Shown here: one piece after another, positions 1-64,000 of the stretch
Layout: each line of letters starts with the position of its first letter
How positions within the stretch are numbered: position 1 is the first letter of the stretch
DNA from: an uncultured Candidatus Bathyarchaeia archaeon
GTDB lineage: Archaea > Thermoproteota > Bathyarchaeia > Bathyarchaeales > Bathyarchaeaceae
Length of the DNA stretch: 64,000 nt
Direction: 5' to 3'
NCBI GenBank assembly: GCA_964418675.1
Contig: CAYQMM010000003.1
Location: 152,202-216,201, forward strand
Made by a program: the position numbers and the translations under genes
Notes under the pieces: model-generated
The model's input: only the letters and a program-made list of their open reading frames with translations
Database searches by the model: none
What the model was told of the DNA's origin: nothing

Positions 1-432
1 AGGCGTACTTTTCATGCGTTCAAAACCAAGATTAATAGTGAAATGCTTCCCACAACTCTTACAGTAGTAAACCTGAATGTCTCCACGTTTATTGTGCCTC
101 ACTCCATCCCTAACCAAATTTTCAGAACCACAAATTTGACAAGATTGCAGATTCGCAATAGGTTCAATTTTTACTTTCTCAACCGTTCTTCTTAGAGCAA
201 TCGAAAATTTTACAGCAAAAATGTGCTTACATTTCACTCCCCTAAATTGATGGTCTGGACACTCACAAACCCAGTTGTTATCTACTTTAGAAACGATATA
301 GCTACCATTTCCGCTTTGAGAAAGAACCCGATAAGAGAAACTGTCAACATTTCGGATGCTGTTTCGGTTATTATTAAAAATCTCTAAACCTCTTTCTTCC
401 CGAAGTTTTTGGAGTTCTTGTATGCTCATCAT
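1..432 (-). CDS. IS/transposase-like protein, N-terminal part only (SWIM-type zinc finger plus CxxC...CxxC zinc ribbon); the gene runs off the left edge
   Basis: This is my own reverse-strand translation from the ATG at 430-432: MMSIQELQKLREERG...NNWVCECPDHQFRGVKCKHIFAV...CQICGSENLVRDGVRHNKRGDIQVYYCKSCGKHFTINLGFERMKSTP. The frame is open to position 1. It is absent from the supplied track because its 3' end is cut by the window edge. Confidence 0.6.
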   Translation of the reverse strand, partial: MMSIQELQKLREERGLEIFNNNRNSIRNVDSFSYRVLSQSGNGSYIVSKVDNNWVCECPDHQFRGVKCKHIFAVKFSIALRRTVEKVKIEPIANLQSCQICGSENLVRDGVRHNKRGDIQVYYCKSCGKHFTINLGFERMKSTP

Positions 433-436
433 AGGC

Positions 437-545
437 TTTACCTACAATTTTACCTATACACTTACCTAGTATATAAACATTTAGGTAAAAAAATTAGACA
501 ACAAATAGGTAAAAAGTTTTATAAGTTACCTACAACATTACCTAC
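437..545. promoter_or_regulatory. Array of seven TTACCTA heptamers (five direct, two inverted) in the divergent intergenic region; likely an operator/iteron array, with TATA-like boxes
   Basis: TACCTA cores start at 439, 451, 463, 527 and 539, in direct orientation with 12-bp phasing. TAGGTA cores start at 482 and 506, inverted and 24 bp apart. AT boxes are tatataaa at 470-477 and ttttataa at 517-524. Confidence 0.5.
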
Positions 546-561
546 TCGTAGAGGAAATAAT

Positions 562-753
562 ATGAACGAAAAAGAGGACTTGGGGGAAACAACAACACTC
601 ACACCCGCAACCACAAAAAGTACCTCAATGAGAGCAACTGTCCCCATGAGCATAATCAAACAATTCAACCTAAAAGCAGGAGACAAACTTGGTTGGAAAC
701 TTAAAATTGAAGATGGGGAATTGGTGGTAATTGTAAGACCGATAAAAGAATGA
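562..753 (+). CDS. AbrB/MazE/SpoVT-type DNA-binding protein (63 aa)
   Basis: The C-terminal half of track ORF 409..753 reads ...SMRATVPMSIIKQFNLKAGDKLGWKLKIEDGELVVIVRPI, a typical swapped-hairpin AbrB fold signature. I moved the start to the ATG at 562 because the upstream part of the ORF is the repeat-laden promoter region. Confidence 0.7.
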   Translation: MNEKEDLGETTTLTPATTKSTSMRATVPMSIIKQFNLKAGDKLGWKLKIEDGELVVIVRPIKE

Positions 754-761
754 AAAAAAAC

Positions 762-3700
762 TTAGTCAAAATTAATTTCAGCGTTAAGATAATTTCCAAA
801 TGATGATAGTATGTTGTTTTTTACTTCATCTATTGCCTCATATTTTTTGCAGATTTCTCTTTGTTTATCAATATCATATTCTCCATCATCTTTAATGGGT
901 ATTTTCAGGATAGCTTGTTTCAATATTGACAGTGTTACTCTTTTATTCCCTTCACCGATTGCATAATCTTTGAGAGTTTTCGATAAATAGCGGTGAATAT
1001 AACCAATGTCGATTTGGTCTTCATAGTCGCCTTTTAACAATAAAACGCCACAATGAGTTGTTATGCTAAATTTTCCATTCCTATAGAAGACAGTTCCAGC
1101 ATAAATCCCATCTGTTGTCCACGTAATACATTCAGAATCATAATCGTATGTGTCAATGCACCCAATTACTCCTTCATCAGTGGTTTTAGAAGAATAAACG
1201 GGATATGATCCGCTATGAGTTCTAATGTAATTCAACGTATATTTTGCAGAGCCTTTATGACACTTGAAAAACTTTGTTATGTTTTCCTCTACAAAGTTGT
1301 CTCCAATTTCAAAATCTACAGATGCCGATTCAATTTCATCCTTAATCATTGACAATTTGCTTTTTACTTCTTCAATCTGATCTATTTTTCCAAGAAGATA
1401 TGTCTGATCGTCTAAACTGTAGTTTCCCGTATTATCAACAGGTATAGGAATTGTCAAATCCCTGATTTTGGCAACACCACATTTATTGCTATATAAAAAA
1501 CCCGATGTCAAAAATTTTCTTTCAAGTTGCCATCGCAAATAATCTAAATTCATTAATTTCCCATACTCGTTCTTAAGAAGCATCACACGATGATCATCAT
1601 TTGTAGCAAATCTGTGTTTATGTACAAAAACCCTTCCAACATGAACGCCATTTCTGTTCCAACCTATACAGTCCTCATAGTATTTTATCCCCTGAATGTT
1701 ATCTCGAATTTGACCAATTATTGAGCTTTCATGTTTTGAGCAACCATGAACAGGAACGTCTCCATCATTTTCCCTACAAAACTTTCTTGTTAATTTAGTG
1801 TTGGTTGGTGGAAATTTAAACAAATCACCGATTTTTGCCTGTTTAAACTCTATCTTTTTTTGTGTTTTTTTTAAGGTTCTTAATTTTTCAACACTTTTAG
1901 AAAATACGTCACCTGTGTCTTCAATTTTTTCTATAAATTCGTCTAGTTCCAAAACTTCTGTTTCTTCTTCTATACCAAGATCGATTTTTTCCTCTTTTGT
2001 CCACCAATTATCAATATACCAATACTCCTCTTTGTCAAATCGTTCAATTGGTTGCAGTTTGCATCTTGGATCGCCAATTTCTTTTACTGGAAAAGTGTTT
2101 GGTGAGCCTTTATACGAATTGAATAAATCCTTTGCTTTTTCTAAGTCACTTTTTCCTTCTATTTCAAATCTATAGACATTTAATTGTTCACCAATGTTAC
2201 TTACTAAATAGGTGAATACTGGGAAGTCTTGTTCTTGTTTGGGATTATTCTTTTTTGTTATTCCTAGGATGAATGTTTTTTGTGGTGTATTAAAGAATGT
2301 TTTTGATGGTAAAGATATTATACAATTAACGAAACACTGTTCTCTAATATACTTCCTCAATTCTTTATTTTGTCTAACATTCAAGATGCTGTGAGGTATT
2401 ATTACAAATGCTCTGCCATTACGCCTTAAACTTCGTATTATCCATTCTAATGCTAATCCATCTACGCCTTTGCTACCTGTAGTATAGTAAGCTTGCAATC
2501 CTTCTGTTTTTATTTCTTCTTTTATTGAGGTAACGCCACTTGTTATGTATGGAGGATTTGTTAGGATAAGATCATATTTTTCAGCTTCGTTGGTTATGAT
2601 CCTGTTTAATGTTCCCAAATTTGACTCAGTTAAGAAGTGAAAAATACGATTAAAAAGTGCAGAGAACTCTTTCGTGATGTTTGGATACTTCTCTACAATA
2701 TCTGATAGGTAAATGAGAAGATTAGCTTTAGCAAGTATTATAAGACGTTCCTCATCACTGTCCGAACCTTTATCATAACCCTCGTAGGTTATTGTGGGTT
2801 CTATTTTCCCGTTTTTAGGAATAAAATCTTGCTTCCTAATGGGCTTTTGTATTGTTTCTGCTATGAAGCCACCTACACCACAAAAAGGATCGCATACCCG
2901 TGAACCCTCTGGGAGTTTCTCAACATCAGCCATATCTACAATGGCTCGAACAACTTTTCTAGGTGTGAAAAATTGTCCTAATCTACTCTTATCTGAGCTT
3001 TCTTTAAGAAATGTTTCAAAAAGCTTTGTCTTAAACTCTTTCTTGATATGCCTAAGTGTTGTAAAATTATCATATTTTTTTAGTGTACTTTTGAAAAGAT
3101 TGGCTTGGCTGAAGACAGGGTTACCACTTGCATCTACAAAAATAGTACCATTTATGATGGTTGTTTTATCTTTTCCTTCTGGGAATAGTTCTCTTATTTT
3201 CTTGCGTGTATTTATAGCGTAGTAATTAAGCACATCTTTGTTCTTGACTTTTTGAGCATACATACCATATACAGTTTTGAAGTCATTTGGAACTTTGAGA
3301 ACTTCAAGATCGCTAAGGAATTTAAAGATAAACAGTTCAACAACATTGTACAAGCATTTTTCAGGTTCTTTTCCAGTGTTGATATAAATGTCTTGCCATA
3401 CACCTTTAGCTAAACTTAGCGGATCGACGGTTTCAGTGGGGATTAGTGTAGAATTTTTCTCATTTACTGCCGATAATATTCTATCTACATAATCCAATGT
3501 ATTTTTTGTTGTCTCCGCTAACTTGTCAAAAATAGGCTCGGAAACATCTTGGATTACAAAAGGTTCACTTAAATCTTTTTTATCCTCATTCCTAATGATC
3601 GAATAACTACGTTCAACATTGTACTTGTCTCTGTATGTGTTATTCTTGTTTGATTGTCTTGGGTTTATCCAGATGAATAGTTGTCCATCGGTAATTACGC

Positions 3701-4010
3701 CCATTTTTGAATTTAGAACTTGACAAACATCGTTACATTGTTCTATAGCGCTTTTCTTTTGGGCATCAGTCCTAAACTCTGATGGTTGCTTATATTCTAC
3801 TACAGCGATTACGGTAATGTTTTCTTTGTTTTGCCTATTGACAAGTAAGCCGTCTGGTTTTCGTTGGGAATATCTGCCGTAATCAACATTGGGAATAATT
3901 CGATAATTTTTATACTGATTGAGCGTAGTGTCTTGGGTAGGAAAATATTCAAGATGTCCAATTTTGACACCCGCTTCCGTAAAACCCTTACTTATTAATT
4001 CTTCGCTCAT
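762..4010 (-). CDS. Single-polypeptide restriction-modification enzyme (Type IIB/IIG-like RMS fusion): N-terminal PD-(D/E)xK nuclease, gamma-class N6-adenine methyltransferase, and a C-terminal two-TRD specificity region
   Basis: The 1082-aa ORF carries PDGLL...VVEYK (nuclease), QFFTPRKV (motif X), DPFCGVGGF (motif I, AdoMet binding) and TNPPY (motif IV). About 460 aa at the C-terminus form two similar HsdS-like halves. Confidence 0.8.
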   Translation of the reverse strand: MSEELISKGFTEAGVKIGHLEYFPTQDTTLNQYKNYRIIPNVDYGRYSQRKPDGLLVNRQNKENITVIAVVEYKQPSEFRTDAQKKSAIEQCNDVCQVLNSKMGVITDGQLFIWINPRQSNKNNTYRDKYNVERSYSIIRNEDKKDLSEPFVIQDVSEPIFDKLAETTKNTLDYVDRILSAVNEKNSTLIPTETVDPLSLAKGVWQDIYINTGKEPEKCLYNVVELFIFKFLSDLEVLKVPNDFKTVYGMYAQKVKNKDVLNYYAINTRKKIRELFPEGKDKTTIINGTIFVDASGNPVFSQANLFKSTLKKYDNFTTLRHIKKEFKTKLFETFLKESSDKSRLGQFFTPRKVVRAIVDMADVEKLPEGSRVCDPFCGVGGFIAETIQKPIRKQDFIPKNGKIEPTITYEGYDKGSDSDEERLIILAKANLLIYLSDIVEKYPNITKEFSALFNRIFHFLTESNLGTLNRIITNEAEKYDLILTNPPYITSGVTSIKEEIKTEGLQAYYTTGSKGVDGLALEWIIRSLRRNGRAFVIIPHSILNVRQNKELRKYIREQCFVNCIISLPSKTFFNTPQKTFILGITKKNNPKQEQDFPVFTYLVSNIGEQLNVYRFEIEGKSDLEKAKDLFNSYKGSPNTFPVKEIGDPRCKLQPIERFDKEEYWYIDNWWTKEEKIDLGIEEETEVLELDEFIEKIEDTGDVFSKSVEKLRTLKKTQKKIEFKQAKIGDLFKFPPTNTKLTRKFCRENDGDVPVHGCSKHESSIIGQIRDNIQGIKYYEDCIGWNRNGVHVGRVFVHKHRFATNDDHRVMLLKNEYGKLMNLDYLRWQLERKFLTSGFLYSNKCGVAKIRDLTIPIPVDNTGNYSLDDQTYLLGKIDQIEEVKSKLSMIKDEIESASVDFEIGDNFVEENITKFFKCHKGSAKYTLNYIRTHSGSYPVYSSKTTDEGVIGCIDTYDYDSECITWTTDGIYAGTVFYRNGKFSITTHCGVLLLKGDYEDQIDIGYIHRYLSKTLKDYAIGEGNKRVTLSILKQAILKIPIKDDGEYDIDKQREICKKYEAIDEVKNNILSSFGNYLNAEINFD

Positions 4011-10552: not shown

Positions 10553-11461
10553 GTGACTATGGCAGTCCCTGAAGAAGATTTACAGAAATATCGGCGTGCC
10601 GGAAAAATCGCGAGGGAGGTTCGGGAAGAGATTAAGAGAACTGTCAAAGAAGGAATGCCTATCATTGATGTTTGCGAGAAGGTTGAGGAGTTAACCAGAA
10701 AGAAGGGGGGCAAACCAGCTTTTCCATGTAACGTCTCAGTTAACGAGGTTGCTGCCCATTACACATCTCCCCCCAAAGACAAGCAGACTATACCTGAGAG
10801 GTCCATAGTTAAAGTAGACATCGGCGTTCATGTTGACGGTTACATAGCCGACACAGCCACAAGCGTCTGCTTCGACCCAGAATACGTTGACATGGTGAGC
10901 ACGGCGGAAGAAGCCCTAGAAAAGGCTGTGGAGCTGCTTCGACCCGGACTCTCCATAACCCGCTTCGGCTCGGCAATTCAGAAGACCATCAAGACCCGAG
11001 GATTCAAGCCCGTCTCAAACCTCACCGGACACCTCATCAGACGCTACATAATTCACGCGGGAAAGTCTCTGCCCAACGTCTTAAGCCTCTCCGCCTCCAG
11101 AATAAAGGAGGGAGAAGTCTATGGGGTTGAACCCTTCGTAACAGTTGTTGATGCCGCTGGCAGAGTGGAGAACTTGCGGGAAGCCCACATCTTCCGCTAC
11201 GCTAAACACAAGTCCCTGAAAGACCCCTACGCCAAACAGATTTTGAATTATATCAGGAAGAATTTTTTGACGCTGCCTTTCACTGAGAGGTGGCTGAGCA
11301 GATTCTCGTCGTCCGATGGCTACAAAAACGCCTTCTCTGAGCTTCTCTCATCCAAAGCTGTTGTAGGCTACCCTGTCTTTGTTGAAGCAAGCAAAAAACT
11401 TGTGGCACAAGCAGAACACACGATTATGATTGTTAAAGACGGATGTGCAGTATTAACCTGA
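10553..11461 (+). CDS. map: Methionine aminopeptidase, type 2 (archaeal)
   Basis: AGKIAREV..., FPCNVSVNEVAAHY, VKVDIGVHVDGYIADTA and AQAEHTIMI show the typical MetAP2 metal-ligand pattern in about 300 aa. Confidence 0.9.
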   Translation: MTMAVPEEDLQKYRRAGKIAREVREEIKRTVKEGMPIIDVCEKVEELTRKKGGKPAFPCNVSVNEVAAHYTSPPKDKQTIPERSIVKVDIGVHVDGYIADTATSVCFDPEYVDMVSTAEEALEKAVELLRPGLSITRFGSAIQKTIKTRGFKPVSNLTGHLIRRYIIHAGKSLPNVLSLSASRIKEGEVYGVEPFVTVVDAAGRVENLREAHIFRYAKHKSLKDPYAKQILNYIRKNFLTLPFTERWLSRFSSSDGYKNAFSELLSSKAVVGYPVFVEASKKLVAQAEHTIMIVKDGCAVLT

Positions 11462-14155: not shown

Positions 14156-14280
14156 GGGGTTGCCAGCTTTCCCGGGTTCACGTGGCCGAAGACCACACTA
14201 GCACCAGGAACGGAGCGTGGTTTAACTTCTGAGTTCGGAATGGGATCAGGTGGGTCCCACGCCCTATGGCCGGCAACCCC
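14156..14280 (-). rRNA. rrf: 5S ribosomal RNA (stand-alone)
   Basis: The reverse strand reads GGGGUUGCCGGCCAUAGGGCGUGGGACCCACCUGAUCCCAUUCCGAACUCAGAAGUUAAACCACGCUCC...CCCGGGAAAGCUGGCAACCCC. The termini are complementary and the conserved CCGAAC...GAAGUUAA core is present. Confidence 0.92.
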
Positions 14281-16598: not shown

Positions 16599-16752
16599 TG
16601 GTCGGGCGGGCGGGATTTGAACCTGCGACAGTCCGGTTTCTGTACGCTTGATAGGCTGGGTGATGCCCACCACCGGGTAGGCGTCTACAGCGTCTCCGTC
16701 AGCTTGGAAGTCAAGCTGGCTCGGAAGCTCTACCAAGCTGAGCTACCGCCCG
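16599..16752 (-). tRNA. tRNA-Tyr(GUA) with two insertions in the anticodon arm (30 nt at 31/32 and 47 nt at the canonical 37/38 position); CCA is encoded
   Basis: The reverse strand reads CGGGCGG-UA-GCUC-AGCUUGGUA-GAGC-U-UCCGA-[30 nt, genome 16691-16720]-CUGUAG-[47 nt, 16638-16684]-A-CCGGA-CUGUC-GCAGG-UUCAAAU-CCCGC-CCGCCCG-A-CCA. C1:G72 plus A73 is the archaeal Tyr identity set. The anticodon GUA is at 16686-16688. Confidence 0.75.
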
Positions 16753-20582: not shown

Positions 20583-20671
20583 GGGCCGGTAGTTCAGTCT
20601 GGTATGAATGCCGCCTTCGCAAGCACAGCAGAAAGAGGCGGAGGTCGCGGGTTCAAATCCCGCCCGGTCCA
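20583..20671 (+). tRNA. tRNA-Ala(CGC) with a 14-nt canonical intron
   Basis: GGGCCGG-UA-GUUC-AGUCUGGUAU-GAAU-G-CCGCC-UUCGCA-[AGCACAGCAGAAAG]-A-GGCGG-AGGUC-GCGGG-UUCAAAU-CCCGC-CCGGUCC-A. The G3:U70 alanine identity pair is present and CCA is not encoded. Confidence 0.9.
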
Positions 20672-20918
20672 CTTTGGAATGCTCTCTGTTTATCTGTGTG
20701 TTTTTTGAGAAAAAGCCTGTTTTCAACAATACGCTGTGATTAGGCTCCAAATATGTTTGTTATTTCTGCTTAATTTCTTGTTTACTGGAACTCTTGTAGC
20801 CATAATAGGTGGAAATAAAGGTGGAATATTGACGAAATTGGTGATAAATACGAAAAGGTTTTTAGTTCCGTTCTATAACAACACAGACAAAACGTAGTTC
20901 ATATATGAGGTGAAATGA

Positions 20919-29261: not shown

Positions 29262-30079
29262 GCGTCTTCGAAGGCTTCAAATTCAGGAAAGTCTCTTCTG
29301 CCATCCACAGGCTGGACCCAAGAATCAAATTTTTCTACGTTATCGTCTTGTTTGTGATGGCGATTCTATTCACCAAGCTGCTGGCACTGATTGTCCTATT
29401 CTTCGTACCCTTGCCCTTCGTTTTTATGGCAAGAGTCAAACGAGAATGGCTGCGTTCCCTGAGAGGAGCCGCATTCTTAGCTATCTTCATCTTCGCAACA
29501 AACTTCATCTTCGGATACTTCTATCCAACATCATTCACGGAAATAACTCCCCCCGTTGACACAATCGGAGAGATTCTTGTTCTTTTGGAGCGAGCCTCAG
29601 CCATGACTCTACGTTTCGTCGTTCTAATTGCATCCTTCTCCGTATTCTTTCTAACAACTTCGCCTGACCATCTAGGCTTGGCGCTACAGCAGAGTCACAT
29701 TCCCTACGAGTTTTGTTTTGCCTTCACAACTGCGGTTCGTTTTGTCCCTGTCTTGGCTGACGAGGCGCAGACCATCATGGATGCTCAGAAGGCTAGAGGA
29801 TTGGAGTTGGAGCGTGGAAACTTTCTTAAACGGGTGAGAAACTACATTCCCATCCTCATTCCGCTGATTGTTAATGCCATCAGAAGAAGCTTGGAGTTGG
29901 CGGAGGCTATGGAGTCTCGGGCTTGGGGTGCCAGCGAAAAACGCACAAACCTCTACGTGCTCAAACTTAAACGGGCAGATTACCTCCTCGTCCTGCTTTC
30001 TGTTCTGATGCTGATCATTGCTGTTTACGTCTGGCTATACGTCCCCATTCCCACATTAACAACACTTCTTAACCTCTAA
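29258..30079 (+). CDS. ecfT: ECF transporter transmembrane component T (CbiQ family)
   Basis: This 273-aa polytopic membrane protein follows the two ATPases and carries the conserved ARG...E region (MDAQKARGLELE). Confidence 0.85.
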   Translation: MSVFEGFKFRKVSSAIHRLDPRIKFFYVIVLFVMAILFTKLLALIVLFFVPLPFVFMARVKREWLRSLRGAAFLAIFIFATNFIFGYFYPTSFTEITPPVDTIGEILVLLERASAMTLRFVVLIASFSVFFLTTSPDHLGLALQQSHIPYEFCFAFTTAVRFVPVLADEAQTIMDAQKARGLELERGNFLKRVRNYIPILIPLIVNAIRRSLELAEAMESRAWGASEKRTNLYVLKLKRADYLLVLLSVLMLIIAVYVWLYVPIPTLTTLLNL

Positions 30080-30196
30080 ACCCTCTCCAAAGCTAATTTA
30101 CACTGCAAACAGAATGTTACACTCAAAAAACATGTTTAATCCCCAGATTTGAACGGCAGCTCAAATCAACAATATCTAACGGAAGTTTCCTTCGGA

Positions 30197-30292
30197 TTAT
30201 TTGGTCTTCTTTCTTCGTCTCTGCCTCTTCTTCTTAACCCGCTTCTGTTTCTTCTTAGCGGTCTTTTTTGTCATGCCGTGATGTCTTGCCAT
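30197..30292 (-). CDS. Possible 31-aa extremely basic peptide
   Basis: My own translation is MARHHGMTKKTAKKKQKRVKKKRQRRRKKTK. It is below the track threshold, has no homology support, and is reminiscent only in composition of L41e-type peptides. Confidence 0.25.
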   Translation of the reverse strand: MARHHGMTKKTAKKKQKRVKKKRQRRRKKTK

Positions 30293-30385
30293 TCTAGTCC
30301 AGTTTCCTTCCACATTAGTCTAAAGTGTGATTCTTAAAGTTTTACGTTACCATCCTTGCGGCGATTATTAAAGCTTATTTCACCC

Positions 30386-30453
30386 GGTTCTGTAAAGTCT
30401 TCGGTTGATGGCATGTTTTGAGAGGGCTGTAAAAAATCGGTTGATAGAACTTT
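30386..30453. repeat. Left terminal inverted repeat (68 bp) with an internal CGGTTGAT duplication
   Basis: ggttctgtaaagtcttcggttgatggcatgttttgagagggctgtaaaaaatcggttgatagaacttt. Confidence 0.9.
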
Positions 30454-30535
30454 GCAGTGGACATGCTACGAAGAGCCTCTATACCTTTCTAATCGGTTTT
30501 ATATAGCGAGTAATGAAAGCATTTAACGGTTTAAA

Positions 30536-31021
30536 ATGTCTGAAGATGAATCCACAAAAGAAATGCTCAGTAAAATAGCTTCAAAAGTATCTACATTTGC
30601 AATTGGAAACTATATTCAACCTATACATAGCTTGAAGGACAGCTTAGAGAATCATGATTGGTTTAAGGGGTTAATTCTGTCTACGACTTTCTTAGAGATG
30701 TTTGGATTCTTGAGCTTAAGAACATATTATGAGCAAAACGTAGACCGTGAACACCATAAAAAAATCGGAGAATTCCTTTATCGTTCTGGACTAGCACGGA
30801 TAATAACGTTATTGTATTTCTCGGGTTTAATAAAACGTGATAGCTATACCAAAATGATTGAAATTAACAAAGCAAGAAATGAAATAGTTCATCGTGTACG
30901 AAGAATAAAAAAAGATGAATTTGCTTTTGACGATGAGATAGATATTAAATTTGAGAGAAAAGCAAAAAAACTGATTAAGCAGACAATCATATGCCTCAAA
31001 GAATTGGGAGTATCTCACTAG
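30536..31021 (+). CDS. HEPN-motif protein (predicted RNase-type toxin/effector), cargo of the TIR element
   Basis: The 161-aa ORF looks all-helical and carries an R-x4-H motif with the typical Asn after Arg (KARNEIVHR, R114...H119) in the C-terminal third. This is motif-level evidence only. Confidence 0.5.
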   Translation: MSEDESTKEMLSKIASKVSTFAIGNYIQPIHSLKDSLENHDWFKGLILSTTFLEMFGFLSLRTYYEQNVDREHHKKIGEFLYRSGLARIITLLYFSGLIKRDSYTKMIEINKARNEIVHRVRRIKKDEFAFDDEIDIKFERKAKKLIKQTIICLKELGVSH

Positions 31022-31131
31022 ATGAACTAGACCATATAATTCCACATTCAAAAGGAGGAAAAACCGAACTTCAAAATGCACAAATTACCCATAAATCCTG
31101 CAATGCCCAAAAATCCAAAAAGACACCATAG
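30991..31131 (+). pseudogene. HNH (His-Me finger) nuclease core remnant or mini-ORF overlapping the end of the HEPN gene
   Basis: My own translation in the other frame is MPQRIGSISLDELDHIIPHSKGGKTELQNAQITHKSCNAQKSKKTP, showing the DH...N...H..CN pattern. The N-terminal CxxC half of a normal HNH domain is missing. A 1-nt frameshift within 30979-31018 would fuse it to the HEPN ORF. Confidence 0.45.
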
Positions 31132-31218
31132 ACTCTTCGTGAAAATGGCAACAAAAGGCAACTCTACAGTATCTTCATCCACATCTTTTTATGTCCAATC
31201 CTGAATAAAGATAGATTT

Positions 31219-31713
31219 ATGGCATCAGACGAACAAAACAAATCTCTATTGGTACAATACCGAGAATGTTGGGCAGAGATTAGAAATTTAGATACTTTAA
31301 TTTGGCAAATTCCTTCAATAGCCATGGCAATTAATTCTTTTTTTGGGATTGCCTATCTCGGTTATGCAAAAACCCCTGAGGCAAGAATGATACTATTGTT
31401 TGCATCATTCGCATTCAATTTTGTTTCCATTATTACACTAAGAAAGCACCGTTTCCTTCAGATTGCTCGCACAGAGGATTTGATATGGGTTCAAGAAAGA
31501 TTGAGACAAACCGTAAAAATACGGAATATAAAATGGCAAACAGCACTGATTCTTTCAGATACAGAACAATATCGTGATGTCCCGAGAGACGGAATGATAG
31601 GCATTTCAGCATATCGATGGTTACTCGCTGTACTATGTTTAACATTAATTGTTATTACTACCGTACTAATGGTTGAAATACTTACTTTCTATTTTACATT
31701 TATTCTAAACTAA
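31219..31713 (+). CDS. Multi-pass membrane protein, cargo of the TIR element
   Basis: The 164-aa ORF has hydrophobic segments IPSIAMAINSFFGIAYLGY, MILLFASFAFNFVSIITL and WLLAVLCLTLIVITTVLMVEILTFYFTFIL. Its stop codon lies 2 nt inside IR-R. Confidence 0.55.
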   Translation: MASDEQNKSLLVQYRECWAEIRNLDTLIWQIPSIAMAINSFFGIAYLGYAKTPEARMILLFASFAFNFVSIITLRKHRFLQIARTEDLIWVQERLRQTVKIRNIKWQTALILSDTEQYRDVPRDGMIGISAYRWLLAVLCLTLIVITTVLMVEILTFYFTFILN

Positions 31714-31779
31714 AGTTCTATCAACCGATTTTTTACAGCCCTCTCAAAACATGCCATCAACCGAAGACTTTACAGAACC
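31712..31779. repeat. Right terminal inverted repeat (68 bp)
   Basis: It is the exact reverse complement of 30386-30453. Confidence 0.9.
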
Positions 31780-32011
31780 TTTCACCCAATGAAGCAGCTG
31801 AATAAACTTGTTCCCTGTTTCGAGAACATCCCTCAGAAGATTCAGTTATTTTTGTTGTCATCTGCCTTGATTAAGCGTCCAGTGTTTCGTGAGGCTGTTT
31901 CAGAGTCGCTCCATTTCATCATCACGTTAAAGCTCAGAGCGGTGTCCCTCATCACACAATAAACGTCTTACATGAAAGTTTAAAACCTTATCCTCAGGTT
32001 CCGATGCTCAG

Positions 32012-53810: not shown

Positions 53811-54758
53811 TTATTCTTCAGCGTCCTCGACGCCTTTCTCCGTGATTTTGAATCGCGTCTTATTTTCGGGTAGGTTTGGAGAGTCTATGACTGTAGCTAT
53901 CCTAGTTCCTTTTCCTCCTTTCCGCAGGTAGACTCTGTGCGTGCAGGCGTGGGCCATGACGTTTCCGCCTGCGGGTTTGTTGGGGTCTCCGAAAAATGCT
54001 GTAGGGTTAGCTTGAACTTGATTTGTAATCACGACGGCTATGTTGTATGCTTCTGTTAGCCGATTCAGCTTGTGGAGTTGGCTGTTGAGTTTCTGTTGGC
54101 GCTCGGAAAGGTTTTCTCTGCCAACGTATTCGCCTCTGAAGTGTCCAATCATGGAGTCTACGACAACTAGTTTTACGTTGTTTTCTGGACAGAACTTCAG
54201 GAGGTGATCTGTAAGCAAAGATTGATGGCTGCTGTTGTATGCTCGGGCTAGAAAGATGTTACTTAAAGTTTGGTGGGGGTCAAGTCCTAGTGCCTCAGCT
54301 ATTTGGTAAACTCGTTCAGGTATGAACGTCCCTTCCGTATCGACGTAGACAGCGTTTCCCTCTAATCCTCCCTGTTCCACTGGAAGCTGGACCATAACGC
54401 AGAGCGTCAGAGAAATCTGGGTTTTGCCTACTCCATATTCGCCTATGAGTTCGGTCATGGCTTGGGTTTCGATTCCGCCCCCCAAGAGTTCGTTCAGGTT
54501 CTTGGAGCCGGTAGAGCATTTGAGCATATCCTGTCTCTTTTTCCACAATTCCTCTGCAGTTATGAAGTCGACACCCAATTTTTCTCTGGCGGCAGATACA
54601 AGGTTAAGAACGGTGTTGAAGCCTATCCCCGTCTTCTCCGCTATCTCTTTGGGTGGAGTCACGGCAATTGCCGCTGCCGTTGTGAGCCCGGCTGATTCTA
54701 GTTTGTTGGCTGTGGCGGGTCCGACGCCGGGAAGGTTTTTCAGGTCATTATCTTCCAT
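53811..54758 (-). CDS. radA: DNA repair and recombination protein RadA
   Basis: An N-terminal HhH (LPGVGPATANKL), GEYGVGKTQ (Walker A), VVVDS (Walker B) and a C-terminal region typical of RadA/Rad51. Confidence 0.93.
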   Translation of the reverse strand: MEDNDLKNLPGVGPATANKLESAGLTTAAAIAVTPPKEIAEKTGIGFNTVLNLVSAAREKLGVDFITAEELWKKRQDMLKCSTGSKNLNELLGGGIETQAMTELIGEYGVGKTQISLTLCVMVQLPVEQGGLEGNAVYVDTEGTFIPERVYQIAEALGLDPHQTLSNIFLARAYNSSHQSLLTDHLLKFCPENNVKLVVVDSMIGHFRGEYVGRENLSERQQKLNSQLHKLNRLTEAYNIAVVITNQVQANPTAFFGDPNKPAGGNVMAHACTHRVYLRKGGKGTRIATVIDSPNLPENKTRFKITEKGVEDAEE

Positions 54759-59417: not shown

Positions 59418-59798
59418 ATGCAGGTTAAGATTAACAAGACTTTCTTGGAATTGACTCAGGGAGACATAACGGACCAGACTACAGACGCCATAGTTAACGC
59501 TGCAAACACTGCATTGCAGCTCGGCGGCGGAGTAGCAGGAGCCATCAGAAGAAAAGGCGGACCAAAAATCCAAGAGGAATGCAACAAGATAGGGGGAACC
59601 TATGTGGGCGGAGCAGTGATAACAACCGGAGGAAACCTTAAGGCAAAATATGTTATCCACGCTGTCGGTCCGATTCATGGAGACGAACATGAGGATGCAA
59701 AACTGAAAGATGCAACCCTAAACTCCCTGATTTTGGCTGACAAAAAGAATCTGAAGAGCATAGCCTTCCCAGCCATAAGCACAGGAATCTTCGGATAA
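59418..59798 (+). pseudogene. Macro-domain (ADP-ribose binding/hydrolase) gene, 3'-truncated
   Basis: [21 protein letters not shown]...VIHAVGP...[12 protein letters not shown]-stop. The ORF ends inside the second conserved phosphate-binding loop (normally ISTG[IV][YF]G[YF]P followed by roughly 40-60 more residues). Confidence 0.7.
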
Positions 59799-59851
59799 TT
59801 GTGTTTCTAATCCGAGAATCCCTTTATCAAAGGTCATATTTAAGCTCTCTC

Positions 59852-60778
59852 CTACATCATGAAGGCATAGCCGACCGTAGCCAAGAATATCAGTAACATC
59901 AAAAACATAAAAGCCAACTGTGCAACCTGCGCACCGCTAAGTTCTGGTTGCTCTTGCTGTCTCTCTCTCCTTACAAAAGGCTTTGCTGGAACCAAGTTAG
60001 GCTTGCTGTTTGACCTGAACACTCCCGTTTTTATCAGCTTTGTTTCTATCCCTTTGTCATAGAAGAACTCACCAAGTCTAAGGCTTTGAAGCTGTCTAGC
60101 CTTCTCACTTCCGATATAGTTTGAAACCTTCTTTAGGTCGTTCTGTCCGTCCATTCGACTAAAATATCTTTGAAAGCTAAGCTCGAAAACTGAGGTATCA
60201 GTTAGTGCTGCCCTCTGAGTTATAGCGATGTAACCAAGTTTGAAGTTTCTTCCTGCACTCAGCAACCTAAGCAAATACTGAGCTTCATCACTTCTAAGCT
60301 GCCCCTGAGGTATCAAACTTTGAACCTCTTCAAAGACGTAAACGATTGTTTTCCGCTCTTCTTCAGGAATTCCGATTTGCCGATTCCATTCACTCTCTAA
60401 AAGCTTGGCTATGAACTCCTTCGCAATTTTTGGAGTTAACCGACTCAGGTCAAAGACGGCACTATCGTAAATACCAACATTAACTAAAGCATCAATGCCT
60501 AACTCAAAAACTCTGGGAATTGAAGACTTTAACCAAACTCGACTGATGTCAAAGACTTTCACGATTACGCCTTTTCGCATCAGCTTATCCGCTATGGTTA
60601 TGGCTAGGTTGCTCTTTGCTGTCCCTTTTCCGCCACATATGAAAACACCAGAACGCAAAGCCTCTTCAAAATCGATTTGAAGGTTAGAAGGTTCTTCTAG
60701 TTCACTTTCATCAATTAAGCTTAATCTTCTAGCTTCTTGCTCAATGTAGCTTCTGAATTCCGAATCCTCAGATTGCAT
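59852..60778 (-). CDS. P-loop NTPase with a C-terminal transmembrane helix (HerA/FtsK/Zot-like in architecture)
   Basis: VFICGGKGTAKSN (Walker A variant), TIVYVFEEVQ (Walker B) and the C-terminal VAQLAFMFLMLLIFLATVGYAFMM. Confidence 0.65.
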   Translation of the reverse strand: MQSEDSEFRSYIEQEARRLSLIDESELEEPSNLQIDFEEALRSGVFICGGKGTAKSNLAITIADKLMRKGVIVKVFDISRVWLKSSIPRVFELGIDALVNVGIYDSAVFDLSRLTPKIAKEFIAKLLESEWNRQIGIPEEERKTIVYVFEEVQSLIPQGQLRSDEAQYLLRLLSAGRNFKLGYIAITQRAALTDTSVFELSFQRYFSRMDGQNDLKKVSNYIGSEKARQLQSLRLGEFFYDKGIETKLIKTGVFRSNSKPNLVPAKPFVRRERQQEQPELSGAQVAQLAFMFLMLLIFLATVGYAFMM

Positions 60779-61251
60779 CAGTTCCCTTCTAGCTTCTTCA
60801 TAGATTCCCGATTCCTTCAGTTCTTCGACTTCAGGGTTTATTGAACTTACGCTATGGTTTCTGCCGTGATAAATCGCAAAAGCTCTTTCAATTATGTCAT
60901 TCTGTGTTGGTGTTGTCGTTTTTCTTTTCCTCCATTTTTGTTTTAGACAAGTAAAATCTAGCCTTATTTGCTTATAAGCCTTACGATTTGGCTTCTAAAT
61001 TGAAAAATAACACCATTTCAGGGCAGAACATTAATAAGCACCGCAAATCAAACCGTTTTCAGGTTCCCAGACTTTGAACGAGAAACCCCTTCCCCAGACC
61101 GACAACAGACAAGCCACGCAGACCATAGAAGGAGAAAGAAGGATGAAGCTAACCCGACCAATCGAAGGAGAAACCGCAAGACCTGAAGACCATTGAGAAA
61201 CTTTTGGCGAAAACTAAGGGATGGGAGGGGGACAGTAACTAAGCCTTTTCT

Positions 61252-61827
61252 TCACTCTCTTTTTTCTTGTTCCAACCTAGAAGTTATATAGTCAACTAAT
61301 CTTTCTAATTTCTCATACCTTTTTTGTTTAATTTGTTCATCTACCCAAACCAGTTCGGAACCTAATTTGAGTAATATAACCTCAGGGTCATTGATTATCT
61401 TCTTTTTACCAGAAATAATCTTTCCTTTCCCGTTTGTAAACGTTTCCTGCAAAACCGTAGTTCCATCAGGATAATCTAAAGCGTGTGTTACACGGTAAAC
61501 ACCAGAATAAGGTTTCTTCCTTGACGACAAACTCGTTTTCCGAAAATGAACATCTTTAGGAACATGCGACATAGCATTTAAGATTAGATCATAATAATAA
61601 CTACCATTATCAGAATCCCACTTTTGAAGCAAACGCAAGTCAGACCTAAACCGATTAGTCAATGCAGGTAAATCCTCAATTATCCTTTTAATCCGAGAAT
61701 CATATTGCCAATGCTTATTCATCAACCCATTCTTTTCCGCCTCTTCGGCAGCTTCAATATTATCTAAAAATTTATCCCTTCTAAGGATGTATTCCTTCAA
61801 AACAGGGGAGATAAAATTACCCTTCAT
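61252..61827 (-). CDS. Hypothetical protein (mobile-element module)
   Basis: A 191-aa ORF with no motif that I recognise. Confidence 0.4.
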   Translation of the reverse strand: MKGNFISPVLKEYILRRDKFLDNIEAAEEAEKNGLMNKHWQYDSRIKRIIEDLPALTNRFRSDLRLLQKWDSDNGSYYYDLILNAMSHVPKDVHFRKTSLSSRKKPYSGVYRVTHALDYPDGTTVLQETFTNGKGKIISGKKKIINDPEVILLKLGSELVWVDEQIKQKRYEKLERLVDYITSRLEQEKRE

Positions 61828-61908
61828 CGCTTGTTCGCCTTATAAAAAATTGTAAGGCTAGCCTATAAAGATTACCTCACAATTCTATAATTGCTATGGT
61901 GAGTTAAT

Positions 61909-62184
61909 ATGACAACAACCATACAAATAAGTGAGACCAATAAGAACCGCCTCGAGTCAATTTTGAAGAAAACGGAAACTTTTGACTTCGCTATCAGCGT
62001 GTTACTCCTTTGTTTTGATAAACCCCGTTTCGCCGCAGGTGACATACTAGGTCGTGGACGCACGGTTTACCCAAAATTCCCAGATGAAGAAATTGCAGAA
62101 ATCAGGCAACAGCTAGGGAAATATGCCGAAGTTGAACCCCTCAAAACGGCTCAAGAAATCCGAGCGGAAACCAAAAAGAAGTGA
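61909..62184 (+). CDS. Ribbon-helix-helix-like small protein
   Basis: The N-terminal TIQISETNKNRLESILKK is a typical RHH beta-strand plus helix start. Confidence 0.45.
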   Translation: MTTTIQISETNKNRLESILKKTETFDFAISVLLLCFDKPRFAAGDILGRGRTVYPKFPDEEIAEIRQQLGKYAEVEPLKTAQEIRAETKKK

Positions 62185-62194
62185 GGAAACCAAA

Positions 62195-62503
62195 ATGACC
62201 GATGTAAAAACCACAAGCGAGCGACCCATCAAAGACGACATAGGCACAGCTTACGGCTTAGGAGCCGTTCAGGCTATGAACGAACCGCTTTCACAGGACG
62301 AGAACTGGACTACCGCTCATAATGACCGAGATGAAGCGCATAGGATTGCCCTAGCGGAAGAAGACAAACACTATGCTCAAAATCACCCCGACCCAGAACC
62401 ACCGATTGAAATCTTTGAGACACCAGAACAGCCAACAAACAACCGTGCAGACGTTCAGGCAGCCATGCGGCGCAACCTAATCAATCGAAGGAGGCGCAAG
62501 TGA
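62195..62503 (+). CDS. Hypothetical acidic protein with a basic tail
   Basis: I moved the start to the ATG at 62195 (MTDVKTTSERP), preceded by GAGGAAAC. The track start at 62123 overlaps the previous gene. Confidence 0.4.
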   Translation: MTDVKTTSERPIKDDIGTAYGLGAVQAMNEPLSQDENWTTAHNDRDEAHRIALAEEDKHYAQNHPDPEPPIEIFETPEQPTNNRADVQAAMRRNLINRRRRK

Positions 62504-62865
62504 TGGACGACCGCACCATCGCCAAAATAAACGCAGAAGTTAGAGAAATGCTGAAGAAACAAAAAGCCGCAGGTGGTGGACGAGCAGCCAGAGCAAGATT
62601 TTTGGCGATGAACGCAGACCTTGAAAAAAACCCACGTGCCCTTCTTGACATAGCTGAATCCACAATTCCCCCCGAAGTTAAACAGCATGAGCAGCAAATA
62701 TATGATGAAAATGAAGAAGCCATGCTTGTCCAAGCTGTCCAACAGAGTGGTAGCAACCCCGCAGCTACAGCGAGTTTCTCCCACTTGGCGAAATTTCTAG
62801 CTGAGAGATACGGCGAGGGAGCAATGGAAAAAGCCCGAGAGCTTTTAGGAGCAGACCAACAATGA
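62500..62865 (+). CDS. Hypothetical protein
   Basis: A 121-aa ORF with an ATGA overlap on both sides. Confidence 0.4.
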   Translation: MMDDRTIAKINAEVREMLKKQKAAGGGRAARARFLAMNADLEKNPRALLDIAESTIPPEVKQHEQQIYDENEEAMLVQAVQQSGSNPAATASFSHLAKFLAERYGEGAMEKARELLGADQQ

Positions 62866-63383
62866 GCAAACTTAAAAATCCGTTCGCAGACCCCACGAAA
62901 CGCCATGTTCTACAGGGCGACTTCATCGGTTCCAAAGAATGGCACCGCAGAGCCACTTTTGAGGAACAGATCATAGCTTACTGTCTTGAAAAAAACTTTA
63001 GTGCTGAAGACTTCATCAAACATTTCAACGAAAACATCGCTCCGTCGCTCGCCAAAGTCTACAAAAATCGTGAGGAACAAAAAAAGAAGCTCAGGGAAGA
63101 ATGGAAAGAAAAGAGGAGAATTTCTGAACTGCCCGAAAATTATCTGCCACAGATTTTCCTAGCAAGAAAACACGCCCCGCAAAAACTGAACGAGACCATA
63201 CAAAAATACACACTAAAGGACTTCAGGAAGGTGCATCAGAGAGCAATAAATGGAGACTTCGACAGCCTACTTGGCATTTCAGCTTTACCGTTTATTCAAT
63301 GGCTAAACATGGTAATCCAACAGAAACAAGCAAAACCCGCATCTACAAAACAAAAAATCTTAAACACCCTCAGAGGTCACTAA
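62862..63383 (+). CDS. Hypothetical protein
   Basis: A 173-aa ORF that is translationally coupled to its neighbours. Confidence 0.4.
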   Translation: MSKLKNPFADPTKRHVLQGDFIGSKEWHRRATFEEQIIAYCLEKNFSAEDFIKHFNENIAPSLAKVYKNREEQKKKLREEWKEKRRISELPENYLPQIFLARKHAPQKLNETIQKYTLKDFRKVHQRAINGDFDSLLGISALPFIQWLNMVIQQKQAKPASTKQKILNTLRGH

Positions 63384-63384
63384 C

Positions 63385-63756
63385 ATGCTCTACGGCGACA
63401 CAGTAATCCTCCTAGACGACATATCAAGCGGATCAAGCGTAGTCTACAGCAAATCCGTTAATGTCAAGGACTTCAGCAAACTACTACTCCACTTCAAAGA
63501 AGGCGGCTATAGCAATGTCGAAATAACCGTTTATGCCCGCCTCAAAAAAGACGTGGATAACGCAACGACATGGACAACCATCCTAGCAGCAACGCTTCTA
63601 TCTAGCGGCGGAACTGCCATTCTTGTTTCTGGTAGCTTAACTGGTGCGACTCAGGTGGAACTTCTTGATGAAGTTTGGGACGAAATCCGAGTGGGAATCA
63701 AAAACAGCGGCGGAACAGGAAACGTCAAAGCTTACATCTCTAGGCGAAGACGATAA
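63385..63756 (+). CDS. Hypothetical beta-rich protein (possible structural protein)
   Basis: The 123-aa ORF has alternating hydrophobic patterns (VEITVYARL, AILVSGSL, IRVGIKN, VKAYIS) and an RRRR tail. The structural role is inference only. Confidence 0.35.
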   Translation: MLYGDTVILLDDISSGSSVVYSKSVNVKDFSKLLLHFKEGGYSNVEITVYARLKKDVDNATTWTTILAATLLSSGGTAILVSGSLTGATQVELLDEVWDEIRVGIKNSGGTGNVKAYISRRRR

Positions 63757-63770
63757 CGGAGCCACAGCCA

Positions 63771-64000
63771 ATGCCCGCCAAATACTACAGACCCCGCATC
63801 AAAAACCCCCCTAACATAGACTGGCAGCGGCTACTCGCTCTGGTTGCCATTTTAGAGGACACCACCAAAGCCGAAATCGTGACCCACGCCATCGCTTCAT
63901 ATTCAATTTGCAAACTAGATGACCACTATCTCGACAACCCAACCACCTTTAAAAAGGAAATTGAAGCGGAACTCGAAAAGCTACAAAAAGAGTTTGAATA
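63771..64000 (+). CDS. Hypothetical protein, 5' part (runs off the right edge)
   Basis: My own translation is MPAKYYRPRIKNPPNIDWQRLLALVAILEDTTKAEIVTHAIASY..., RHH-like, and the frame is open to the window end. Confidence 0.35.
   Translation, partial: MPAKYYRPRIKNPPNIDWQRLLALVAILEDTTKAEIVTHAIASYSICKLDDHYLDNPTTFKKEIEAELEKLQKEFE

Follow-up and report, generated by a model that had tools for sequence, protein, structure and literature searches.

Integrative plasmids and cryptic elements that carry SSV-type or tyrosine integrases, and sometimes FtsK-HerA ATPases, are already known from archaea. The DNA examined here is a 64,000-nucleotide stretch from an uncultured Candidatus Bathyarchaeia archaeon (the window; positions 152,202 to 216,201 of contig CAYQMM010000003.1, assembly GCA_964418675.1). 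Its last part, at 59.8-64.0 kb, holds the left end of a mobile element integrated in the chromosome, and the hallmark of this element is an FtsK-HerA superfamily ATPase with its own C-terminal membrane anchor. The features of this element and its relatives that appear to be new are the self-anchored packaging-type ATPase, a size of ~10 kb, gene exchange with head-tailed viruses, and the presence of at least one member in a Bathyarchaeia metagenome-assembled genome. Membership of the window element in this ATPase-bearing family is very probable. On balance we favor the fuller account in which it is a plasmid-like element of a new family and its ATPase pumps element DNA at the membrane for spread.

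The pT26-2 integrative plasmids of Thermococcales and Methanococcales have a VirB4/B204-like core ATPase, t26-14p, which has been proposed to move DNA across membranes (PMC6972569). They resemble the present family in being archaeal, in using SSV-type integrases and tRNA targets, and in having a variable region with a Rep gene and ORFans. However, they are 17-38 kb long and share a 12-gene conserved module rich in proteins with multiple transmembrane helices, whereas the elements described here are ~10 kb long with the anchor fused to the ATPase. The hosts are different, and the tools used here found nothing in the present family that resembles the pT26-2 core in sequence. The pRN-family plasmids of Sulfolobus (pXZ1, pSSVi) are also small and integrative, with an integrase, a regulator of the CopG/ribbon-helix-helix (RHH) type and a large RepA. 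They have no FtsK-HerA ATPase, and the 559-aa replication protein of the window element (p559) is half the size of RepA with no detected prim-pol domain. The integrase of the window lineage, as seen in its closest relative (contig L021), is a classical tyrosine recombinase and not of the split SSV type.

A possible analogy is offered by the TraB elements of actinomycetes, which are ~9-24 kb in size and integrate into tRNA genes. Besides an integrase and a Rep protein they encode one FtsK-like translocase of double-stranded DNA (dsDNA), which associates with the membrane and is sufficient for transfer. These elements are bacterial, and TraB has an N-terminal membrane domain and a C-terminal winged helix that recognizes clt repeats. 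No clt-like repeats were found at 59.7-64 kb of the window.

ArcVen-P3, likewise archaeal, small and integrated, combines an integrase with a divergent FtsK-like ATPase. One gene downstream of this ATPase it encodes a VP16-like single jelly-roll capsid protein (Makarova et al. 2014, PMC4158269), and no equivalent capsid gene was found here. Thaumarchaeal cryptic integrated elements carry integrases without viral or conjugative hallmarks, and some, such as NitKor-E1, include genes of head-tailed viruses (Krupovic et al. 2019, PMC6563490). No signature gene defines those elements; the present family is defined by one, its tail-anchored ATPase.

In sediments, Bathyarchaeia rank among the most abundant archaea. 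The mobilome described for them comprises only four proposed virus families (PMC10848311), and an integrative plasmid-like family of ~10 kb would extend it and supply a signature gene by which further members can be searched for. A packaging-type ATPase with the anchor built in is a simple design, and it could reveal how FtsK-HerA pumps came to be recruited back and forth among plasmids, head-tailed viruses and viruses that contain membranes. The virus-derived cargo described below also raises the question of whether archaeal head-tailed viruses have satellites or are targeted by decoy proteins. The window holds part of one such element, possibly one that is decaying.

Integration and bounded relatives

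The chromosomal gene at the left junction encodes a macro-domain protein (59418-59798, plus strand; Pfam Macro, E 3e-37) and is both the insertion target and the left chromosomal flank. Its match ends at profile position 108 of 118, and it aligns only as far as residue 119 of 159 in TTHA0132 and residue 146 of 192 in Af1521, with at least 40 aa gone. The stop codon of the ATPase lies 53 bp beyond this truncated gene, and the truncation marks the 53 bp between them (59799-59851) as the presumed att region. GC content drops to 39% in the region from ~45% in the flanks. Because the host gene is truncated at the junction and the relatives are bounded by att repeats and integrases, we read 59.8-64.0 kb as the left end of an integrated mobile element that removed the 3' end of the macro-domain gene. 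The first-pass annotation of this DNA, made from its letters alone, had likewise proposed an integrated virus- or plasmid-like module.

The ends of the element are best defined in a 47.8-kb contig in ENA from an uncultured sediment archaeon (L004). Perfect 52-bp direct repeats occur there at 1154-1205 and 11248-11299, 10,094 bp apart, and the right repeat lies inside a tRNA-Thr gene. An SSV-type integrase (PF16795) occupies the left end and the ATPase the right end. When the two ends are joined in silico, one unbroken open reading frame (ORF) runs across att into the integrase, which is a classical split SSV-type enzyme. The ATPase of this element (P0023) recurs in 26 indexed sample blocks, where most of its contigs are 5-10 kb long.

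Two other lineages have a similar arrangement. L008 spans ~9.3 kb from the integrase start to the ATPase stop, and L017 spans ~9.2 kb with the integrase at one end and the ATPase at the opposite end; cellular genes lie on both sides of each. In L002/L003, from a Candidatus Bathyarchaeia metagenome-assembled genome, the ATPase gene abuts a tRNA-Leu gene. In every context examined, as in the window, the ATPase gene has its 3' end toward the junction with the chromosome. The bounded relatives, whose ATPases are 42-58% identical, are about 9.3-10.1 kb long. The window element is probably ~10 kb long as well, with its integrase expected a few kilobases past the window. Two element-sized contigs (L009, L018) were considered as excised circles and rejected, as they are 100% identical sub-stretches of integrated loci that include some flank and have no terminal overlaps.

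An all-against-all BLASTP comparison found only the ATPase to be common to the window element and L002, L004, L008 and L017. What the family shares is an integrase at one end and a tail-anchored ATPase at the opposite end. Because the ATPase is the sole universally conserved gene besides the integrase-type function, it is better understood as part of the backbone than as cargo. No capsid, portal or terminase family was found in any lineage (the window, its Logan continuation L001, L004, L008 and L017) by Pfam, PHROGs or PDB sequence searches. A scan of JGI metagenomes gave no closer relative of the window element, and the family was not found in the Bathyarchaeia virus survey (PMC10848311) or in the other literature searched. 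It is a rare, previously unannotated and apparently undescribed family of integrating elements of ~10 kb, which agrees with the suggestion of the first-pass annotation that the lineage might be new; neither IMG/VR nor the phage collection searched contains it.

The closest syntenic relative is L021, a 9,794-bp Logan contig that has seven genes of the window element, including the ATPase, in the same order. Proteins of the window element are named here by their length, and their L021 counterparts are a 360-aa ATPase (64% identity) and proteins of 201 aa (p191, 39%), 91 aa (p91, 56%), 118 aa (p120, 28%; E 3e-6), 201 aa (p173, 27%; E 5e-15), 62 aa (p76, 44%) and 562 aa (p559, 71%). Because six of the ORFs have syntenic homologues in this independent contig at 27-71% identity, they are more than chance reading frames. 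After the p559 counterpart, L021 continues with a SIR2_2 gene, a membrane protein gene and a 371-aa tyrosine integrase that is homologous to the integrases of L017 and L008. The SIR2_2-domain gene (L021 2619-3728) and the adjacent 285-aa membrane protein, between the replication gene and the integrase, are probably anti-virus defense cargo. None of the 9.8 kb of L021 encodes a recognizable terminase, portal or capsid protein.

The operon of the window element runs past the window edge on L001 (a Logan contig from SRR14802574), where a Cys-rich 99-aa gene is followed by the p559 gene. Residues 210-424 of p559 are homologous to residues 457-671 of pXZ1 RepA (tblastn E 3e-6; pairwise E 7e-17), and the same residues match Thermus toprim-domain plasmid proteins (E 3e-5). 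Pfam gave only sub-threshold HTH_33 and AAA_22 matches to p559 and no prim-pol match; PHROGs gave none at all, and a single-sequence PDB search gave nothing useful. Judged by the homology to RepA, p559 is a RepA-like replication protein related to those of integrative pRN-family plasmids. Because of the synteny with L021 and the homology of p559 to RepA, we take the backbone to comprise the anchored ATPase and an integrase together with regulators and a replication protein of plasmid type. Of the virus, provirus and plasmid identities that the first-pass annotation left side by side, the plasmid-like one is supported by the RepA-like p559, and no capsid gene was detected that would sustain the viral ones.

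The tail-anchored ATPase

The ATPase gene lies on the minus strand, and both the ORF list and the raw sequence give a 308-aa ORF at 59852-60778. It encodes the Walker A motif GGKGTAKSN, the Walker B motif VYVFEE and a single C-terminal hydrophobic helix (hydropathy 2.41), the three features from which it had first been recognized as a membrane-anchored P-loop protein. The 308-aa ORF exists but is a shortened reading that begins at an internal Met at 60778. Homologues are 350-375 aa long and begin MTTPT..IIERAF, and in the window the reading frame of this conserved N-terminal segment stays open as far as ~60934, which places the gene at 59852-60934. The start region itself (60935-60951) is damaged: read across an A5 run, the ATG at 60951 falls +1 out of frame, and the position at which the family starts reads ACG. 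The corresponding start is MTTPT in homologue P0054 and MEEKKITTPT in homologue P0013. Either the gene has been slightly damaged, as in early pseudogenization, or the A5 run contains a homopolymer assembly error.

P0054 is a second copy of the ATPase, with 355 aa, an intact start and 94% identity to the window copy. The C-terminal 147 residues of the two are identical, and both are recorded on a 220,895-bp NCBI contig. The genome may thus contain another element of this kind, or two elements may have recombined.

In a database of 5.8 billion proteins the ATPase matched 33 proteins, and a profile search raised the family to 46, none of which has a Pfam domain annotation or an informative name. 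A scan of IMG/VR with the ATPase alignment, a search that the first-pass annotation had recommended, found no match, and tblastn against the phage collection found nothing useful. The Walker A Lys (K107) is invariant, and at least 90% of the 43 members compared keep E202, E203, R223, R229 and R260. Because the Walker A Lys, the Walker B Glu-Glu pair and the arginines are kept across the family, the ATPase should be active. A hydrophobic C-terminal transmembrane tail is present in 38 of 46 members, including those of the most distant clade, while the sequence of the tail is not conserved; retention of hydrophobicity without sequence conservation is expected of a membrane anchor under selection.

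Sequence similarity to known families is weak but consistent in direction. The family profile matches DUF87/HerA chains in the PDB (E 0.0065, below curated thresholds), 12 of 43 members have sub-threshold Pfam DUF87 matches (best E 2e-4), and three match TrwB_AAD_bind. Over the same core, the ATPase also matches phrog_2666, annotated as 'terminase large subunit' (E 1e-11). A single-sequence search of the PDB gave nothing useful, and tblastn found DUF87 genes of haloarchaeal plasmids (E ~1e-8). These DUF87 proteins (551-567 aa, ~26% identity) are the sole annotated sequence relatives of the ATPase, and they occur on Halobaculum plasmid pCBA1158-3 (L019, 1-1656) and 14 other haloarchaeal plasmids. 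On two haloarchaeal plasmids the DUF87 match lies within the first 800 bp of the record.

An AlphaFold2 model built from the 43-sequence alignment (pLDDT 90.6, pTM 0.70) replaced one from only 15 sequences that was unusable (pLDDT 56). It has an N-terminal helical region of ~85 aa, a RecA-like core and a long C-terminal helix. Foldseek matched the model to the STIV2 genome-packaging NTPase B204 (PDB 4KFT; E 1.8e-11, target-normalized TM-score 0.75), to HerA (E 2e-11 to 9e-11; 4d2i, E 9e-11) and to TcpA (6o1w, E 1e-8). Among viral models in BFVD, the ATPase of Haloarcula hispanica virus PH1 matched with E 1.7e-13 and a target-normalized TM-score of 0.72, and the corticovirus NTPase and A32-like packaging ATPases were also found. 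Zot proteins appeared only at ranks 40 and 45 (E ~1e-5).

According to this model, the ATPase is a member of the FtsK-HerA superfamily that is nearest to viral genome-packaging ATPases, and it is probably a DNA translocase. The first-pass annotation had hesitated between a HerA/FtsK and a Zot/pI ATPase, and the Foldseek comparison that it named settles on the former through B204 and PH1 but not on the latter, which ranks 40 or lower and has no Pfam Zot match. Compared with the packaging ATPases (B204, PH1, PM2/corticovirus and A32-like), the window protein has the same P-loop core (target-normalized TM-score 0.72-0.78 over ~220 residues) at 17-20% identity, but it adds the ~85-aa N-terminal helices and the C-terminal transmembrane anchor. 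Also unlike them, it has no adjoining jelly-roll capsid gene that we could find, and it stands alone at the element border, facing the att site.

Virus-derived cargo and the role of the ATPase

The fifth gene of the plus-strand operon encodes a 123-aa protein (p123; 63385-63756) that the first-pass annotation had singled out as a candidate capsid fold. It has no PDB or PHROG match by sequence or profile, and tblastn against the phage collection gave nothing useful. The p123 family is tiny, with four close homologues and 11 matches in 1.84 billion representatives. Homologues P0036 (63% identity) and P0037 (45%) are encoded in morphogenesis modules of head-tailed viruses, where the major head protein gene (phrog_24667, E 1.7e-29) lies two genes upstream of them; this position is typical of neck or head-accessory genes. 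Portal and prohead-protease genes are present in these modules, and a downstream gene is long enough to encode a tape measure protein. L021 has a 226-bp gap where p123 stands in the window. Because p123 is absent from L021 and its homologues lie in head-tailed virus modules, it is an accessory gene, cargo recently exchanged with head-tailed viruses, and not the capsid gene of the element. The RRRR tail that had been noticed in the window copy is present, and a C-terminal RRR is conserved.

Other lineages have cargo of their own. A Peptidase_S78 match above the Pfam threshold (E 2e-7) occurs in both L008 (7558-8460) and L002 (3255-3980), elements of ~9-10 kb without a detectable major capsid or portal gene, and L008 also encodes an HNH endonuclease. 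L004 has a gene pair with sub-threshold Mrr_N and Mrr_cat matches that resembles defense-type cargo. Head-tailed viruses equipped with a terminase and portal of their own encode a distant clade of the tail-anchored ATPase. One member, P0049, is on a 66,802-bp head-tailed virus genome that is indexed in 44 sample blocks (L014, L015, L016), and its gene stands at the end of the early-gene cluster. This genome is probably complete and circularly permuted, because the gene lies at different coordinates in the three contigs examined.

The ATPase and p191 are transcribed in one direction and the coupled operon in the other, with an RHH-like regulator first and the 559-aa replication protein last. 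In the mechanism that we propose, ATPase subunits would most likely form a ring that their C-terminal helices tether to the membrane on its cytoplasmic side, and this ring would most likely translocate the dsDNA of the element so that the element leaves the cell. Exit could occur by loading into a membrane-bounded particle or vesicle, or by direct cell-to-cell transfer. Export is suggested because the ATPase is the sole backbone gene besides the integrase, because its fold family consists of DNA pumps, and because of the pT26-2 precedent; that the ATPase serves export in particular is a tentative proposal, which we put at slightly below an even chance. A bolder version is doubtful: that these elements are a new class whose only universal machinery is an integrase and a self-anchoring FtsK-HerA pump, one protein that loads or exports dsDNA in the manner of TraB or as a minimal vesicle or virion motor, and that, as the family trades morphogenesis genes with head-tailed viruses of Bathyarchaeia, some members may be the first satellites of archaeal head-tailed viruses.

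Several observations weigh against the plasmid-like reading and its membrane pump. Ring formation, DNA translocation and export are all steps that we infer, and one C-terminal helix per subunit is a tether and not an obvious DNA channel, with no partner channel protein identified. The best structural matches are to capsid-packaging ATPases of membrane-containing icosahedral viruses, and genes for Peptidase_S78 (a prohead protease), for an HNH endonuclease or for a protein that may be a jelly-roll occur in some relatives. The ATPase clade in terminase-bearing head-tailed viruses may mean that the job of the pump is not tied to the transfer of small plasmids. The window copy of the ATPase has no canonical start codon and may be inactive. 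Finally, the size and type of the window element are extrapolated from relatives, as its own right end (integrase, attR and the remainder of the macro-domain gene) was not recovered.

If the locus were instead the provirus of a small icosahedral virus with a membrane and no tail (sphaerolipovirus-, turrivirus- or ArcVen-P3-like), the ATPase would be a packaging motor on the internal membrane at a special vertex, and one of the small beta-rich operon proteins would form a capsid of the single jelly-roll type. Packaging ATPases of such viruses are the top structural matches (B204, 0.75; PH1, 0.72; corticovirus NTPase; A32-like), ~10 kb with an integrase is also the format of PM2-like and ArcVen-P3 proviruses, and FtsK-like packaging ATPases have been stated to be found only in viruses with jelly-roll capsids (PMC4158269 for both). 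p123 is rich in predicted beta-strand residues, and a 127-aa protein of L017 has a precomputed weak match to the jelly-roll domain GH172_1st. However, this match was not reproduced with a local Pfam copy, p123 and the 127-aa protein have no similarity to one another, and the occurrence of p123 (missing from L021, with homologues in head-tailed virus modules) does not fit a capsid gene. Lineages with 50-64% identical ATPases have no gene but the ATPase in common, although a shared capsid gene should be detectable at such distances. The known part of the operon consists of regulators and a plasmid-type replication protein, and distant ATPase homologues occur in head-tailed viruses that have their own terminase; such a provirus is unlikely. 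A satellite of head-tailed viruses (an archaeal analogue of phage-inducible chromosomal islands (PICI), P4 or pSSVx), with its own RepA-like replication and captured morphogenesis genes that redirect helper virions, seems unlikely to a similar degree. It would account for p123 being 63% identical to a gene two downstream of a major head protein gene, for Peptidase_S78 in L008 and L002 and the HNH endonuclease in L008, and for an ATPase family shared with head-tailed viruses; the ~10 kb size and the order of integrase, regulators and replication genes also resemble bacterial satellites. pSSVx and pSSVi, relatives within the pRN family, are known satellites, which counts in its favor. Yet the captured virus genes differ by lineage and are absent from L021 and L004, so that by these genes it is not the common lifestyle of the family. 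Neither a small terminase nor a cos/pac site nor a gene that redirects capsid size was identified, none of the elements was tied to a helper virus, and a membrane-anchored FtsK-HerA ATPase has no known role in satellites. The lone virus genes could equally be anti-virus decoys that form part of the defense cargo, as would the SIR2_2 gene of L021 and the sub-threshold Mrr-like pair of L004.

The ATPase might also have nothing to do with spread and act as a membrane exclusion or defense factor, or as a tether for replicating DNA. HerA subunits of SIR2-HerA match the model as well as B204 does (Foldseek E 2e-11), HerA-type ATPases are core components of the SIR2-HerA and DUF4297-HerA anti-phage systems, and a SIR2_2 gene is present in L021. 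Distant homologues that end early-gene clusters in terminase-bearing viruses would fit superinfection exclusion or tethering. But the ATPase (355 aa, with a helical N-terminus in the model) is half the size of defense HerA and has no N-terminal barrel. It has no conserved neighboring effector, as the SIR2_2 gene lies 5 kb away in L021 and is absent elsewhere, and its universal conservation suggests backbone and not cargo; we think this role rather improbable. Two further readings were rejected. In one, the locus would belong to a large head-tailed provirus of 30-70 kb, of which we see the early or regulatory end and whose structural genes lie beyond the window, a reading that the missing right end, the restriction of p123 homologues to head-tailed viruses and the distant ATPase clade in the 66.8-kb virus would allow. 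L021 argues to the contrary: a 9.8-kb contig with the same core, it ends in an integrase and has no terminase, portal or capsid gene. The bounded relatives are about 9.3-10.1 kb, p123 stands among non-structural genes, and neither the window, L001 nor L021 contains a terminase large subunit, portal or HK97-fold major capsid gene, which makes a large provirus very improbable. In the other, an inovirus-like element would use the ATPase as a Zot/pI-type assembly or extrusion ATPase. An N-terminal P-loop ATPase with a single transmembrane helix does resemble pI, and Zot matches occur in BFVD (E ~1e-5), but these are about eight orders of magnitude weaker than the PH1 match (E 1.7e-13), and Pfam Zot does not match at all. 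The window protein ends at its transmembrane helix with no domain after it. The window, L001 and L021 contain no small single-transmembrane coat genes and no rolling-circle Rep, the replication protein being pRN RepA-like, and an inovirus-like element is hardly credible.

Gene layout of the left end and other features of the window

Upstream of the ATPase, a 300-bp non-coding spacer (60952-61251) separates it from the co-oriented p191 core gene (61252-61827, minus strand). An A/T-rich, TATA-like stretch lies in this spacer ~30 nt upstream of the ATG at 60951 and may act as a promoter. p191 has no match in Pfam, PHROG, NCBIfam or the PDB. An 81-bp A/T-rich spacer (61828-61908) follows, in which the TATA-like boxes ttataaaaaa, ctataaag and tctataat can be read; it is a putative divergent promoter region between p191 and p91 (61909-62184, plus strand), and the divergent 191-aa/91-aa pair is present just as first described.

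p91 opens the operon and is a putative RHH regulator, with a weak DUF7557 match over residues 2-26 (E 0.014-0.028). A small RHH-like first gene also occurs in L005 (RHH_1, E 0.03) and in L017, where the precomputed RHH_12 match was, like GH172_1st, not reproduced with the local Pfam copy. The gene after p91 encodes a 102-aa acidic protein with an RRRRK tail (62195-62503) that is unique to the window element and has no homologue in L021 or any library searched; it is also called as a gene on the Logan contig. The core genes p120 (62503-62865) and p173 (62862-63383) occupy the same positions as their L021 counterparts, and after p123 comes the core gene p76 (63771-64000), a putative second RHH-like regulator. 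The stop codon of p76 straddles the window end, and the complete ORF is found at 2790-3020 of L001. No library searched gave a family match for p76, so the two RHH regulators proposed by the first-pass annotation are tentative: the DUF7557 match lends some weight to p91, while the 76-aa assignment found none.

The plus-strand genes are closely coupled, with successive junctions formed by a gap of 10 nt, overlaps of 1 nt (TGATG) and 4 nt (ATGA), and gaps of 1 nt and 14 nt. The six coupled ORFs that had been noted by eye are all present, and the string is repeated on L001, whose position 1 corresponds to window position 60982 and through which the sequence of the window element was read up to window position ~66,079. 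No housekeeping family was found for any ORF of the region in Pfam, NCBIfam or PHROGs, as had been expected from the translations. The repeat search at 59.7-64 kb detected neither iterons nor att repeats.

Elsewhere in the window, GC content is low at 1-4000 (34%) and 30000-32000 (37%) relative to 45-50% in the remainder, and the first of these stretches is filled by a 1082-aa minus-strand ORF at 762-4010. Both stretches may be other foreign islands. An Rfam scan of the whole window found only a 5S rRNA (14158-14277) and two tRNAs, none of them at 59.8-64.0 kb. The first tRNA match (16602-16752, 151 nt) is read as intron-containing, and the second is a tRNA-Arg(CCT) match at 20583-20672 (89-90 nt). 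A RadA-like gene, identified by eye at 53811-54758, and the 151-nt tRNA match mark the host as archaeal, and the 5S rRNA and tRNA matches are consistent with an archaeal chromosome.

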